From contig JBGOTO010000003.1 in NCBI GenBank assembly GCA_041476485.1, positions 1 through 47,577 of the forward strand: 47,577 nt of DNA, in the 5' to 3' direction. Below, piece after piece: positions 1 through 4,248 of the stretch; position 1 is the first letter of the stretch; each line of letters begins with the position of its first letter. This stretch comes from Nitrospirota bacterium (GTDB taxonomy: Bacteria > Nitrospirota > UBA9217). Below the pieces are notes generated by a model, which saw only the letters and a list, made by a program, of their open reading frames with translations, was not told the DNA's origin and ran no database searches. The position numbers and the translations under genes were made by a program.

Positions 1-188
1 GCCTCAGACTTCATTCTGCTCTACCCGACCTATGTAACTCAAGAAATACCAACTGTAGCTGATTTCTCCCATGTTTTGGTTAACAAGTGCGTTTCATTTA
101 CAGCAACATTCGTAAAATCTTTGTTCACATTATCAAGGAACCCCATAATTGTTGTACATATTTCATGGAATGCAGTGTGCGCATCAAT

Positions 189-746
189 CTAATTCTTTAC
201 TGGCTGATAACAGAGCAGTAGAACGCCCAAAGCGAGCGTTTTCGTTTTGACAAGCTCCAGCTTCGTCATGTGCATGCCTTCATTGAAGAAACGCTTCCCG
301 CTCCCCATGAAAATGGGTTGAATTAGGAACTGATATTCATCGATTAGATTGGTATTCATCAGCGCGTGGACGAGACTGGCGCTGCCGGGTATAAGGATGT
401 CGCCGTCAGGTTGCTGTTTCAGTCTCTTGATTTCCTCAATGAAATTGTCTTTGATAATTGTCGAATTATTCCAATTAGCTTCTTTCAGTGTGGAAGAGAC
501 AACATACTTGGGCATGCTGTTAATACTGCTCGCAGGCCCATTGTCATCATTCTTCTGATAGGGCCAATAAGCTGCAAGCATTTCATAGGTTGTTCGTCCA
601 ACGAGGAGGGCACCCGATCCGGATACAGTCGCTTTAATATACTCGCCCCTCTGACCGCTGTTGTAAGGGTTAAACCATTGACTCATTGTATCTGCGTCAA
701 AGACGCCATCCAGCGTCATCCAAGCAGAAACAACTATTCTTCTCAT
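189..746 (-). CDS. Dihydrofolate reductase / RibD C-terminal family protein (probable gene cassette)
   Basis: Motifs MTLDGV, LLVGRTTYE, KYVVSSTL, GSASLV, LIDEY, GSGKRFF are typical of the bacterial bifunctional deaminase-reductase C-terminal (DHFR-like) family; AGGAGG RBS upstream. Confidence 0.9.
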   Translation of the reverse strand: MRRIVVSAWMTLDGVFDADTMSQWFNPYNSGQRGEYIKATVSGSGALLVGRTTYEMLAAYWPYQKNDDNGPASSINSMPKYVVSSTLKEANWNNSTIIKDNFIEEIKRLKQQPDGDILIPGSASLVHALMNTNLIDEYQFLIQPIFMGSGKRFFNEGMHMTKLELVKTKTLALGVLLLCYQPVKN

Positions 747-816
747 GTTTAGCTTCCTCCTATTTTAATTTGTTGTGCTTTCATAGTATCCCTCCGTTGC
801 GCACATTGCATATAAT

Positions 817-1033
817 GAGTCTGTAGGAAAAGTCCCTCTCAAAGCCCCGACGCACCAGGCTTCGTTTAACGCAATTAAACTTCCGCGCTGTCTCTCATGA
901 TGGCCAAGTGAGGAGAAGCCCGTCATTCGGGCTCAGAATCGTCGCCATTACTACTCCTATTAGCATCAGCGAAATTACGTCGCTACCCTCAAAGGGTTAA
1001 AATAAGCCCTTTCAGGGGTTTTTCTACAGACTC
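817..1033. mobile_element. MITE-like element, family A copy 1 (217 bp)
   Basis: Perfect 10-bp terminal inverted repeats GAGTCTGTAG / CTACAGACTC; flanked by AAT and AAC; colinear with 2533-2749; no credible ORF. Confidence 0.85.
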
Positions 1034-1036
1034 AAC

Positions 1037-1254
1037 GAGTCTGTAGAATAAGTCCTTTTTCTAACCCCGGTGCGCTAGAAGCGATACAGTGCAATTAAAT
1101 TCTGGTCGAGTCATTTGTTCTCTATGAGATGCGGGTAAGCCTGCTATTCGGGCATTCCCGCGTTTATATCGTTCCTTCTATTACGATCCTCGACATTGCC
1201 GCTGCTTCCCAGATGAGCAAATTTGGGCTAATTTAGGGGTTTTTCTACAGCTTC
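1037..1254. mobile_element. MITE-like element, family A copy 2 (218 bp), tandem with copy 1
   Basis: Termini GAGTCTGTAGAATAAGTCC and GGGGTTTTTCTACAGCTTC; AAC on both sides; interior more diverged than copies 1 and 3. Confidence 0.85.
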
Positions 1255-1437
1255 AACGCCCCGGTGAGCGGCTGCCCCCGCAGGGGGCAAGTCCGTCTCG
1301 ACCGGTTTGATGGCTCGCGCTGCTTTCGCGCGAGACAGCAGGTCGGCCGCTCACCGGGGCGATGGGCCGCGCGAAGCGCGGGCCATTGCGGTGTTGAGGG
1401 GCCAGCTTCACGGCCCCTCTCGAACACCTTGTTGGTT
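1251..1437 (-). other. Composite / degenerate attC region downstream of cassette 1462-1902
   Basis: Minus strand begins AACCAAC (R'') and ends GTTGAAG (R'); contains two attC-like palindromes and a 16-bp perfect inverted repeat (1257-1272 / 1346-1361). Confidence 0.7.
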
Positions 1438-1461
1438 TGTCGCAGATATAACTCTGTGTCT

Positions 1462-1902
1462 TTAAGCTCCGGATTGTGGGCTTGTATTCCTGCGTGTGAC
1501 AAATATATTCTCTTTGCTGACATGCTTTGAGATTTCGTCGAATAGAGAGTCGGCAAGCGCATCCATTTTAGATTTCATGGCAGGCTCGCGTCCTCTGACA
1601 TCATTCTGCAATACTAACCCAAGGCTTTCTAATCTTTTTTCTGGATATTCTGATTTCGGATAATGACATGTTGCATTGATGCAATTATTTCTTTCCGACG
1701 TGAAGCTTTTTAAGTATGCTGCAAGCAAATAATTGCGGCGTGCTGGATGGGCAATTTCTTGAACGAGAATAAAATGGTCGGCTTTTAAAATATCGATGAT
1801 TTTATCTAAAACCGATTTATCAACGTCATTCACACCAAAGGTAACCCTATATCCCGGATTGAAGAACTTTGACAGTTTATCAAGGAAACCATTTGCGCTC
1901 AT
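1462..1902 (-). CDS. Hypothetical protein (gene cassette), 146 aa
   Basis: ATG at 1902 with GAAAGGGG RBS just after the attC crossover at 1929; the longer ORF-track start runs through the attC and is unlikely; AT-rich. Confidence 0.7.
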   Translation of the reverse strand: MSANGFLDKLSKFFNPGYRVTFGVNDVDKSVLDKIIDILKADHFILVQEIAHPARRNYLLAAYLKSFTSERNNCINATCHYPKSEYPEKRLESLGLVLQNDVRGREPAMKSKMDALADSLFDEISKHVSKENIFVTRRNTSPQSGA

Positions 1903-1922
1903 AGATTCGCGACCCCTTTCAA

Positions 1923-1978
1923 AACTAACGCGGAGTTCACACGCCGCGAAGCGGGCGGCGTGGAACGACAAGTTAACT
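1923..1978 (-). other. attC recombination site (56 bp)
   Basis: Minus strand AGTTAAC-TTGTCGTTCCACGCCGCCCGCTTCGCGGCGTGTGAACTCCGC-GTTAGTT; imperfect palindrome with AAC/GTT cores; the upstream ORF's TAA stop lies inside R''. Confidence 0.9.
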
Positions 1979-2524
1979 TCCAGTCGCCTCACTGTTCAAA
2001 TCTTCCTCAATGCCCGAATTGGCGATCCTTAATTCGTTGTTACTGATGCGATAAATATAATTGTAGCCGGTGACAAAACCGTCAGCTTCTTGGAGAAGAA
2101 GTTCATCATTCGAAATCCAATGGTCTGCATAAATAAATGGCTCGTTCTCGCTTTGGGGCTTAATTTCGGTAAGTTGTTTTTTTCGATCTAGGTCCATGAC
2201 AATTATATGATGAACAGGTCTTAAATCACCAGGACCATCAAGTCCGACGACATTGTAAAAACCTACAAATACTGAATATGCGACATAGCGCCTGTCCGAA
2301 GTCATTAGGTAGCTTTTAACGTTCCCGTCAGCGGACGTAATTTTACTACCGACTTTATCACCGCTAATTTCGTAAAGCTCTCCATCTCTTAAAACTACTG
2401 CGGATGATGTTTGGGTTTTGCTCGGAATTATTTTATTCTTTTGACATTGCGGTAGGAGAGTAACTGTGAATAATAAAAGCAGTATTCTTATCAAATAGAA
2501 GTTGTGCACAGTATTTCCTTTCAC
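1973..2524 (-). CDS. Hypothetical exported protein / lipoprotein (gene cassette)
   Basis: Hydrophobic N-terminus ending in LLPQC; stop overlaps attC R''; an alternative GTG start at 2509 has a GAAAGGA RBS. Confidence 0.7.
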   Translation of the reverse strand: MKGNTVHNFYLIRILLLLFTVTLLPQCQKNKIIPSKTQTSSAVVLRDGELYEISGDKVGSKITSADGNVKSYLMTSDRRYVAYSVFVGFYNVVGLDGPGDLRPVHHIIVMDLDRKKQLTEIKPQSENEPFIYADHWISNDELLLQEADGFVTGYNYIYRISNNELRIANSGIEEDLNSEATGS

Positions 2525-2532
2525 TGATTAAC

Positions 2533-2749
2533 GAGTCTGTAGAATAAGTCCCTTTTTAAGTACCAACGCACCAGGCTTCGCTTAACGCGATAAATCTTGC
2601 GCGCTGTCTCTCGATGATGGTTAGGTGAGATAAAGCTCGTCATCCGGGCCTGGAATCATCGACGACACTATTCTTATTAGCATCAGTGAAAATACGTCGC
2701 CTCCAGAAAGGGCTAAAAAGTGCCTTTCTGGGGGTTTTCCTACAGGTTC
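2533..2749. mobile_element. MITE-like element, family A copy 3 (217 bp)
   Basis: Termini GAGTCTGTAGAATAAGTCCC and GGGGTTTTCCTACAGGTTC; AAC duplicated on both sides (2530-2532, 2750-2752); colinear with 817-1033. Confidence 0.88.
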
Positions 2750-2805
2750 AACGAGCGCGTGAGGGGTGCGTTTTTCAGTGACCATCTCGACACGAGTGGT
2801 TAGAA
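2746..2805 (-). other. attC recombination site (60 bp)
   Basis: Minus strand TTCTAAC-CACTCGTGTCGAGATGGTCACTGAAAAACGCACCCCTCACGCGCTC-GTTGAAC directly after the stop of 2809-3489. Confidence 0.85.
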
Positions 2806-2808
2806 CTT

Positions 2809-3489
2809 TTATTTTTCCCATTCGACGTGAACGTCTTTAATTTCATGGTCGTTGTATGCGGTAACATTGACCCGATAGAATGTTTTTCCTCCAAACGTCG
2901 AGTTGATATTCCAGGACGTGACAGAATATTTATATCCAGAGCCGGTAATTTTTTCTGCCTCAATCTTTGCTTTTTCAGGCGTCTCACCGAAGAGGGATAC
3001 TGACATAATGATCGCAAGTATAACGGGAAGACACCCGCCGAAGATAAACCCGTTTTTAGGCTTGCGCCAAAGCCGCTTATTGTCCACATTATTTTGAGTA
3101 ATGGCAGTAAGGATGACTTCTGAGTTTAATGTTTTGTAGACCCAAATCAAGAATATGATCAACGCAATTGCGATAAAACTGTATGCAATAAAGGCTATCG
3201 GGTAAAGCCTGATGTATGTTGTCATAAGATCGATTGGCGTAAAAAAGGGGAAAAGCACCATCACGCCTATGAATGCACTTGATAAAAAGGCGCTAAACCA
3301 GCTGATGATGCGAACTGATTTTAGATTTCCTCGATACAGATACACACCCGCGATAATGGCAAAAATATTAAAGCTGGAAGAATAGCCTATACTATGGATG
3401 ATGCAATAAATCATGTACGCAACATCGACGGTACCAATAGCGATAAGGGCAATACCGACTTTCTTCATGATTGAACGATAATCATTCAT
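2809..3489 (-). CDS. Hypothetical multi-pass membrane protein (first gene cassette)
   Basis: 226-aa ORF with several hydrophobic segments; AAGGA RBS; bounded by GTTAGAT (3512) and an attC whose R'' (TTCTAAC) is nearly complementary to it. Confidence 0.8.
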   Translation of the reverse strand: MNDYRSIMKKVGIALIAIGTVDVAYMIYCIIHSIGYSSSFNIFAIIAGVYLYRGNLKSVRIISWFSAFLSSAFIGVMVLFPFFTPIDLMTTYIRLYPIAFIAYSFIAIALIIFLIWVYKTLNSEVILTAITQNNVDNKRLWRKPKNGFIFGGCLPVILAIIMSVSLFGETPEKAKIEAEKITGSGYKYSVTSWNINSTFGGKTFYRVNVTAYNDHEIKDVHVEWEK

Positions 3490-3505
3490 GTTCTGTCCTT
3501 TTACG

Positions 3506-3530
3506 ATCTAACCAGTTATTGAGCAGTTAG
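3506..3530 (-). other. attI-like site at the head of the cassette array
   Basis: Minus strand CTAACTGCTCAATAACTG-GTTAGAT; GTTRRRY core with no attC-length palindrome upstream. Confidence 0.55.
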
Positions 3531-3536
3531 GCTCGG

Positions 3537-3664
3537 GTATCTAATATTAGATGCAAACATATAATACTATATACAAGCATCTATTATTATATACCTGCCA
3601 GGTTTATAGTATTAGATGCTTTTTGCTTTTTTCATCTCCCCTACTTGCATCTAATACTATATGC
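3537..3664. repeat. Five 18-bp quasi-palindromes, consensus GCATCTAATATTAGATGC
   Basis: Copies at 3537-3554, 3557-3574, 3577-3594 (20-bp period), 3602-3619 and 3647-3664. Confidence 0.85.
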
Positions 3665-3966
3665 TTTTCCAGCACAGTCCCTTTGATCTTGCCGAATTGA
3701 ATGAACCATAACTTTGCATCCGGGTCCCATCTTCCCCTTGCTGCCCGTGCCTTTTCCTGCAATGCTGTTTCAGCAAACCCGATCCGCACAGGAACAAGTG
3801 TAGTGTCGGAAATCTGCGGCCGAGGTGAGGGTGTCCATGCTTTTTTCTCCACAATGAGCTCAACGGTCTTTGCCCTCGTGCAGCTCGCCCTGTCATACCG
3901 GTAGCGCACGCAGACAAGCGCGTCGCCGTACTCGGACAGCAGCTTTTTCGTTCCGTTTTGTTCCGA
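3604..3966 (-). pseudogene. Small basic protein with DUF5710-like C-terminus, apparently 5'-truncated
   Basis: Frame reads ...EQNGTKKLLSEYGDALVCVRYRYD...KTVELIVEKK...ARGRWDPDAKLWFI; it extends upstream of the track's GTG but meets a TAA near 4003 with no ATG or RBS. Confidence 0.6.
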
Positions 3967-4064
3967 TGAAATATTTAATGCTAAAATCGAACTGCAACAG
4001 CCTTAGTTCAATCGACTGCTGTTTTCTTGCTTGATGGAAGGAAATATTTCGTAGATGTGGCTGG

Positions 4065-4093
4065 AGTATGTGGAACTTTGCAAAAGATGTCAA
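4065..4093 (-). promoter_or_regulatory. Candidate sigma70 promoter firing into the cassette array
   Basis: TTGACA-N17-CATACT on the minus strand; a second TTGACA at 4110-4115 lies within a ~21-bp tandem duplication. Confidence 0.45.
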
Positions 4094-4248
4094 TATCCAA
4101 AAAATCACCTGTCAAGCCAAAAAATCACCGGGGATGGGTATTTTTAGGGGATGTAAAAAGGTAAACAATTTTTTTGGCACAGCCCACAAAGGCTGCAATT
4201 TTACTGCGCGGAAATCGATTCGGCTTTGTCGAGTAGGTGTCGAGGAAG

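Follow-up and report, generated by a model that had tools for sequence, protein, structure and literature searches.

The first 3.5 kb of the window analysed here, a contig of 47,577 nucleotides from a Nitrospirota bacterium, carry an integron cassette array with three inserted elements of 217 or 218 bp, which we call W1, W2 and W3. Comparison with related genomes indicates that they are very probably miniature inverted-repeat transposable elements (MITEs) of an attC-specialised lineage of IS1182-family insertion sequences (ISs), moved in trans by a DDE transposase. We observed the anatomy of the elements, a partner IS in related genomes, the position of the target, a constant orientation, the flanking triplets and recent mobility of the family. 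Integrons are the main gene-capture devices of bacteria. To our knowledge, only two kinds of element were previously known to specialise on attC, the recombination site of gene cassettes: the IS1111-attC ISs, which as far as we know make no target duplication, and the group IIC-attC introns. The elements described here apparently represent a third kind of element specialised on integron recombination sites, and one that has not been described.

The array consists of four short minus-strand open reading frames (ORFs) with GC-rich imperfect palindromes in between (Table 1). A first-pass annotation, made from the letters of the window, had described three elements with inverted-repeat ends in a single orientation, each bracketed by AAC (GTT in the cassette sense) apart from one AAT, and our coordinates and triplets agree with it. 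The left tip, GAGTCTGTAG, pairs with CTACAG..TC at the right end, the inverted arms are 16–21 nt long, and W1, W2 and W3 share one strand and orientation. W1 and W3 are 77.6% identical over 214 nt. In comparisons with W1 and W3, blastn matches only the ends of W2; nhmmer aligns W2 over its full length. The flanking triplets are AAT/AAC for W1 and AAC/AAC for both W2 and W3. Position 816, a T in this record, is a C in contigs of four other runs (X3, X4, X5 and X6), and AAT is hence a local variant of AAC. The W1-W2 stack did not arise through misassembly of this record, since contigs of X3 (1–1287) and X4 (434–1272) span both elements. The elements are non-coding: diversity at the three codon positions (0.199, 0.222 and 0.172) has no codon periodicity, and no reading frame is conserved. 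A small ORF of 37 aa was considered and rejected; it is open in about half of the copies, but without codon periodicity.

No further copy was found by blastn or nhmmer in the window, as the first-pass annotation had held, or in the rest of the 2.5-Mb assembly, with the sole exception of a solitary 22-nt right end at positions 4020–4041 of contig C143. This end touches the best-scoring attC of the genome (67.7 bits) and is what remains of a copy since lost. Over the MITE/attC stretches 841–980, 1261–1400 and 1821–1960, the summed depth of contigs from runs X5 and X6 increases 5- to 60-fold; hence, MITE/attC sequences are present many times in those sediment communities. Internally deleted versions of about 60–103 bp, which keep both tips and the attC context, were also seen (L023:1947–2049, and a joint 2574–2731 in runs X5 and X6).

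Table 1. Features of the cassette array, in coordinates of the window.
Feature	Position	Strand	Remarks
Window, whole contig (C3)	1–47,577		part of a 2.5-Mb, 179-contig assembly
Cassette ORF, 185 aa	189..746	-	RibD_C domain; start 70 nt past W1
Flanking triplet AAT	814..816		cassette side of W1
MITE W1, 217 bp	817..1033	+	cassette sense is the minus strand; invariant tip 817–826, on the side away from attC
Triplet AAC	1034..1036		common to W1 and W2
MITE W2, 218 bp	1037..1254	+	most divergent copy; W1 is stacked directly behind it; abuts attC
Triplet AAC	1255..1257		GTT of the R' box of attC 1255–1315
attC	1255..1315	-	model R1, 26.0 bits; occupied by W2 and W1
attC-like site	1385..1437	-	21.2 bits; unoccupied; last triplet degenerate (AAT for GTT)
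Cassette ORF, 146 aa	1462..1902	-	no Pfam family
attC	1927..1978	-	26.2 bits; unoccupied
Cassette ORF, 183 aa	1973..2524	-	no Pfam family; start 8 nt past W3
Triplet AAC	2530..2532		cassette side of W3; cassette sense GTTAATC, a 5/7 match to that cassette's own R''
MITE W3, 217 bp	2533..2749	+	abuts attC
Triplet AAC	2750..2752		GTT of the R' box of attC 2750–2805
attC	2750..2805	-	18.0 bits; occupied by W3
Cassette ORF, 226 aa	2809..3489	-	no Pfam family; upstream of attC 2750–2805

Recognition of attC by folding, either of whole sites or of two 24-nt arms, gave a median of -12.4 kcal/mol for 1500 random GTT sites and -12.2 kcal/mol for the real site at 2750. Since folding did not discriminate, it was replaced by a covariance model, R1, built from 12 IS-adjacent palindromes from other genomes, each cut at GTT, and including no element sequence. 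The consensus fold of R1 has AAC...GTT at its base and a stem with single-base bulges, and compensatory changes are seen in 9 of the 13 predicted pairs. In the window, R1 matches four minus-strand sites. Two of these, attCs 1255–1315 and 2750–2805, abut W2 and W3 with their GTT ends at zero gap, which bears out the earlier suggestion that the triplet is the R' core of the neighbouring attC. No R1 match lies inside W1, W2 or W3, and the alignment has no conserved internal GTT box. We also considered whether the unit could be a gene cassette, which would need a 3' attC of its own, and rejected this for want of a model match in any of the three. In the arrays of two other genomes, G077 and G016, R1 finds 24 co-oriented sites in three regions, 6 of them occupied, and integron integrases that score above the TIGR02249 cut-off lie beside these arrays.

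In the rest of the window's assembly there are five further model attCs at E <= 0.01, the highest-scoring of which is C143:4039–4094. The window's contig has no integron integrase, and the genome has one partial match, on contig C71 (227.7 bits), that falls under the TIGR02249 cut-off. Hence, the array in the window is either an integrase-less cluster or an array cut by the contig end. The attC-like site at 1385–1437 sits 69 nt from attC 1255–1315, and 24-nt arms at 1254–1277 and 1341–1364 pair as well; the two sites represent either a tiny empty cassette or a single long composite site.

Of 63 further genomes in the family to which the bacterium belongs, 20 contain the MITE. It occurs in 12 of the 19 genera, and in none of five other members of the window's own genus. 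A search at the DNA level found it in 11 of 36 same-family genomes, versus none of 24 genomes from other families of the phylum. Among 23 full-length copies, the three of the window included, the attC-side triplet is AAC without exception, and the triplet on the other side is AAC in 21 copies and AAT in two. A given triplet is expected at 1/64 positions, so chance cannot explain these flanks. Read in the cassette sense, the sites in the family genomes have GTT on the attC side in 19 of 19 cases, with 17 GTT and two ATT on the other side. The first-pass annotation had named attC as the target. That claim fits the 13 of 20 distinct MITE sites that abut a model attC at zero gap (12 of them independent of the training set, one by construction), and it does not cover three sites with an AT-rich flank, which are attI/cassette junctions. 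The remaining four sites have GC-rich flanks that the model does not score. Copies of the family do not, then, lie mostly outside attC, nor are their flanks and orientation random.

One of the three attI sites (L046, G064:C5) carries the MITE and is followed by both ends of an integrase gene, an internal deletion having left its first and last parts. At the other two (L029 and L011), the AT-rich flank shows 83–84% identity to a sequence ahead of the intact G016 integrase (352.8 bits), the end of which is about 90 nt from the start codon. The neighbouring gene at L029 encodes the alpha subunit of an electron transfer flavoprotein, not an integrase, and we read this site as attI because 58 nt of it are 84% identical to the sequence immediately preceding an intact integrase in another genome. 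The attI region of G016 itself has AAC once, unoccupied.

Recent movement shows most clearly in G077, a genome that has the enzyme: three of its MITE copies are identical at 217 of 217 positions and occupy three attCs whose neighbours differ. Elements separated by the triplet alone are seen in the W1-W2 pair, in L030 (two identical copies), in L045, in L013 (a MITE and then an IS) and in L048 (two ISs). The closest relative of W1 is 89% identical and belongs to another genus; W2 is far more distant. The interior of the MITE has a mean column identity of 84% across genera. In every case the MITE lies 8–130 nt upstream of the cassette ORF. Among the ORFs downstream of 19 sites, only one pair is related (34% identity), and these ORFs provide no direct evidence that a given MITE-plus-cassette unit had moved.

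The first-pass annotation had also predicted a full-length IS with the same ends. A tip search in five genomes revealed such an element, 1789 bp long, with six copies in G077 and one more in G016. Compared with the first G077 copy, four of the others have 96–97% identity and one has 85%. The IS shares its tips with the MITE, is flanked by AAC on each side and has attC abutting the end that attC abuts in the MITE, and its single ORF points in the cassette direction. The 515-aa product scores 278.2 bits against NF033551 ("IS1182 family transposase", cut-off 270) and matches the Pfam families DDE_Tnp_1_6, DUF772 and DDE_Tnp_1; it is predicted to be an IS1182-family DDE transposase. The left end of the MITE has 17 of 18 nt in common with the IS, and the right end is common to both as well.

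A scan of genome contigs gave 26 IS loci, which may overlap the set from the family genomes, and the counts are thus not summed. The hosts are metagenome-assembled genomes (MAGs) labelled Nitrospirota, Nitrospirae or Thermodesulfovibrionia. The exceptions are a deltaproteobacterial MAG, with five copies, and a "Proteobacteria" MAG, with one. An attC-like palindrome and GTT precede the transposase-proximal end in all 17 left ends seen. At the distal end, GTT follows in 10 of 12 cases, and TTT and GCT in the other two. Two details of individual copies may be recorded here. Similar IS copies of one genome (L048–L050) are dimorphic at the attC-side tip, with GG or CC, and at L049:14793–14827 a 35-nt fragment of a MITE left end is joined to an IS copy at a MITE-internal AAC, the rest of the MITE being missing.

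The family extends far beyond this genome. Metagenome contigs were scanned by exact match to a 20-letter tip pattern, which gave at least 120 stretches; the numbers that follow hold among the matches listed, which comprise 80 loci, 79 of them unique. The triplet beside the matched end is AAC at 53 of the unique loci, GTT at 23 and another triplet at three. Where both ends were located, the same triplet stands on both sides in 47 of 50 cases (31 AAC/AAC and 16 GTT/GTT), and the other three are one base off. The AAC and GTT classes are one arrangement read from either end. A model attC abuts 19 of 51 loci (before de-duplication), always with its GTT (3') end; the sole contacts with a 5' end are two weak reverse-strand echoes of strong attC hits. 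The attC-side tip that follows GTT begins with three purines in 50 of 50 cases and reads RRRY (R, purine; Y, pyrimidine) in 37 of the 50. Element lengths range from 96 to 221 bp with clusters near 147, 159 and 219 bp, indicating several MITE subfamilies with common tips, and the subfamilies are alike in their tips only. Members of the family are frequent in metagenomes from sediment, soil and groundwater.

A more distant relative occurs beside integrons in Pseudoalteromonas. The nearest relative in the plasmid collection is a 40%-identical IS on a 1.3-Mb replicon of Pseudoalteromonas piscicida (NZ_CP074588.1, 760774–762612). It has the same tip, with a long palindrome and GTT upstream and GTT downstream, and two further distal ends on the replicon (758360 and 1233573) are also followed by GTT. 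Of the two integron integrases that the replicon encodes, one (459.7 bits) has an IS end, from another copy, at a distance of about 8.5 kb in the cassette direction. One IS copy on this replicon is apparently interrupted by an IS3-type element.

Is the triplet a target duplication? In an integron, the upstream attC ends in G and the cassette starts with TT. The cassette-side GTT and the next 4 nt are complementary to the R'' of the cassette's own attC at 5–7 of 7 positions in six of seven cases, one of them at all 7. W3 conforms to this: between GTTAATC and the R'' of the same cassette, read as its reverse complement, 5 of 7 positions agree, in line with the clean junction that the first-pass annotation had described for it. 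This complementarity identifies the cassette-side GTT as the original boundary of the cassette; the attC-side GTT completes the upstream site, and one GTT is therefore extra. The same triplet stands on both sides of 21 of 23 genome copies. Furthermore, the deltaproteobacterial MAG contains five copies (L066–L069 and L072) of a 44%-identical IS1182-family IS with similar tips and GCT on both sides, inserted in a different, conserved, non-palindromic target of about 12 bp. Identical triplets on the two sides are thus a property of the enzyme clade, and their sequence depends on the target, which is what a 3-bp duplication would produce. From these comparisons we infer a 3-bp target duplication of GTT.

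We propose that the transposase of a full-length IS in relatives binds the 18–20-nt terminal inverted repeats common to MITE and IS. The enzyme would read the attC hairpin or palindrome from one side and make cuts staggered by 3 bp on GTT. By analogy with IS1272, we infer that it is the folded or palindromic form of attC that is recognised. Insertion would take place at the base of the attC stem on its 3' side, on the final three paired bases, which coincide with the integrase crossover triplet, and the stem would be left intact. GTT would be duplicated and the orientation would be constant, the transposase gene and the cassettes being read the same way. Such constancy is compatible with an enzyme that recognises an asymmetric structure from one side. 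Because the attC-side tip starts with three purines (GAG or GAA), it would rebuild an R'-like box and the site would survive, so that the same attC could be hit again to give stacked copies. The element would become the 5' leader of the downstream cassette, and the integrase could move the unit to further attCs or attIs, also in other genomes. An occupied attC would accordingly still be functional, with the integrase co-mobilising the element. Carriage with the cassette would be the simplest account of the attI copies, of the patchy spread across genera and of dissimilar copies in a genome that lacks the enzyme. The transposase might also target attI directly, or be guided by bound integrase. 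More tentatively, and at slightly less than even odds, we suggest a two-tier integron parasite that is widespread across phyla, in which the transposase would read a folded or integrase-bound site, the tip would rebuild the R' box, the integrase would ferry the element, and MITEs could persist and spread in genomes that, like this one, have no transposase.

Several observations weigh against the interpretation of W1–W3 as trans-mobilised, attC-specialised MITEs. The three copies in the window are only about 60–80% alike, and they may never have transposed in this genome. The first-pass annotation had described a non-autonomous element mobilised in trans by a DDE transposase; an IS1182-family enzyme was found in relatives (NF033551), but tblastn (E <= 1e-3) found no transposase in the window's own genome, in an assembly that is 94.8% complete and of a kind in which ISs often fail to assemble. 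MITE and IS are alike over the terminal ~18 nt only, so their partnership rests on tips, target and co-occurrence. A model attC is absent at 4 of 20 MITE sites and 32 of 51 metagenome sites, the model having been trained on one attC type. Three of the 20 MITE sites are at attI junctions, which have little beyond GTT in common with attC; a transposase that reads structure alone is insufficient to explain these copies unless the integrase moved them. The attC-side tip is variable at positions 3–5, whereas the opposite tip is invariant in 20 of 20 aligned copies, and no correlation was seen by eye between the variable tip and the R'' of the neighbouring attC. Contigs of runs X3–X6 over 1–4200 gave no empty-site allele, that is, no joint that removes one element and one triplet; over the covered parts of this region, joints occur only between different copies, or belong to shorter variants. 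With no empty allele recovered, the GTT duplication is deduced from the flanks.

An alternative explanation is that the elements have no true preference for attC: landing beside an attC would have happened once or a few times, and the integrase would have spread the rest together with the downstream cassette. A GTT-flanked element beside an intact attC does join the next cassette, and the attI copies fit such transport, as do the absence of a transposase from the window's genome and the finding that W1 has its nearest relative in another genus and a far more distant one as its neighbour. However, the 19 callable downstream ORFs are all different save the one 34% pair, and the three identical MITEs and six ISs of G077 each precede a different cassette. 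Stacks of MITE on MITE, MITE on IS and IS on IS at five sites need repeated hits on the same triplet, and the arrangement recurs in the Pseudoalteromonas relative, whose protein is 40% identical. We regard this alternative as unlikely. It is quite unlikely that the integron integrase itself inserts and removes the elements, with the tip-GTT-tip of a circular form as the recombination site and the GTTs as crossover points. No model attC lies inside the MITEs of the window (all four matches are outside), the ends are terminal inverted repeats in common with a DDE-transposase IS, the tip-GTT-tip junction lacks the R''/L''...L'/R' layout and the bulged bases of the local attCs, and the relatives without attC context carry GCT on both sides at five sites, unlike an integrase product. 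These points have to be set against the exact crossover triplet at both attC and attI, the fixed orientation and the purines that invariably follow GTT among the matches listed, and a 3-bp duplication and a site-specific crossover are indistinguishable by sequence.

The 217-bp unit could also be a selected cassette leader, such as a structured RNA, a terminator or a regulatory module, that is not itself mobile. Its constant position 8–130 nt upstream of the cassette ORF and its conserved interior are in keeping with this, as is the maintained pairing of a stem-loop that precedes a T run close to the right end, one pair being GC in eight copies and AU in seven. We consider a leader very unlikely, because identical copies sit at unrelated loci, the 96–221-bp subfamilies have only their tips in common, and those tips are common to a transposase-bearing IS. 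As a structured RNA the unit was rejected: RNAalifold on 20 copies found compensatory change in only 7 of 25 predicted pairs, with a covariation term of -0.34 kcal/mol. Rfam gave no match at gathering thresholds across the whole window, and at E <= 10 over 700–3000 it gave three chance-level matches only. A promoter and terminator scan of 600–3700 gave six promoter-like sites versus 6.1 expected, none of them in the elements; it did not list the stem-loop with its T run, nor any other terminator-like site in the copies.

Derivation from one of the two attC-associated element types already known is almost certainly wrong, as the first-pass annotation had concluded. Both types are reported to insert at attC in a single orientation (PMC11187229; PMC3001079). 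The IS1111-attC group (ISPa21, ISPst6, ISKpn4 and others) sits specifically at one attC end and is reported to use a seekRNA-guided DEDD transposase and to have subterminal repeats (PMC11187229). In contrast, the elements studied here are linked to a DDE IS1182-type enzyme, their repeats are terminal, they have a 3-bp flank, the triplet being present on both sides, and they have MITE derivatives. Group IIC-attC introns are attC-specialised retroelements with a ribozyme and a reverse transcriptase (PMC3001079); here, Rfam detected no group II intron and a domain search no reverse-transcriptase domain.

A literature search found no IS1182-type IS or MITE inserted in attC, subscription journals, ISfinder and supplements being outside its reach; the earlier suggestion that the elements might be undescribed therefore stands. 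MITEs have been linked to integrons before, in the "integron mobilisation units" of Acinetobacter and Enterobacter, in which they bracket and move a whole integron. Those MITEs are integron-associated like the ones described here, but they are not known to be inserted in attC or to have a link to the crossover triplet. Among DDE ISs aimed at palindromes, IS1397 and ISKpn1 of the IS3 family insert in the repeated palindromes known as REP (repetitive extragenic palindromic) or BIME (bacterial interspersed mosaic element) sequences, with a short duplication. They differ from the present elements in transposase family and target class, and in having no known link to site-specific recombination.

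Members of the IS1182 family are reported to target palindromes, and targeting of stem-loops is already known in the family from IS1272. IS1272 is reported to target stem-loops of unrelated sequence, which it deletes without leaving a duplication, and a model put forward in that study has joining take place at the feet of the extruded stem-loop (PMC5678879). An IS1182-family transposase, terminal inverted repeats, a palindromic target and joining at the stem foot are thus features that IS1272, as reported, has in common with the elements described here (PMC5678879). The elements of the integron array differ from that account in having a single functional class of site (attC) as their target, in keeping the stem, in having GTT on both sides and in their fixed orientation.

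What is the significance of such elements for integrons? For annotation, stretches of 100–220 bp between an attC and the next ORF may be elements of this kind and not cassette sequence. Placed between the upstream attC and the ORF, an element may alter the expression or excision of the cassette. The family also offers a natural experiment in how a transposase locates a structured DNA site to the exact base, and it raises the testable possibility that an integrase spreads a transposon. Its occurrence in Pseudoalteromonas, which is cultured, makes bench study possible.

Two further repeat arrangements were seen in the assembly. Between the first cassette ORF and an ORF at 3604–3909, positions 3536–3664 of the window contain four copies of a 15–19-nt AT-rich repeat, direct and inverted, with arms of up to 23 nt; they have the appearance of an operator array, or else of what is left of an attI/promoter region. 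Tandem 10–11-nt units that resemble the first ten bases of the inverted repeat of the MITE occur close to contig ends at C115:115–170, C136:132–190 and C169:376–440.

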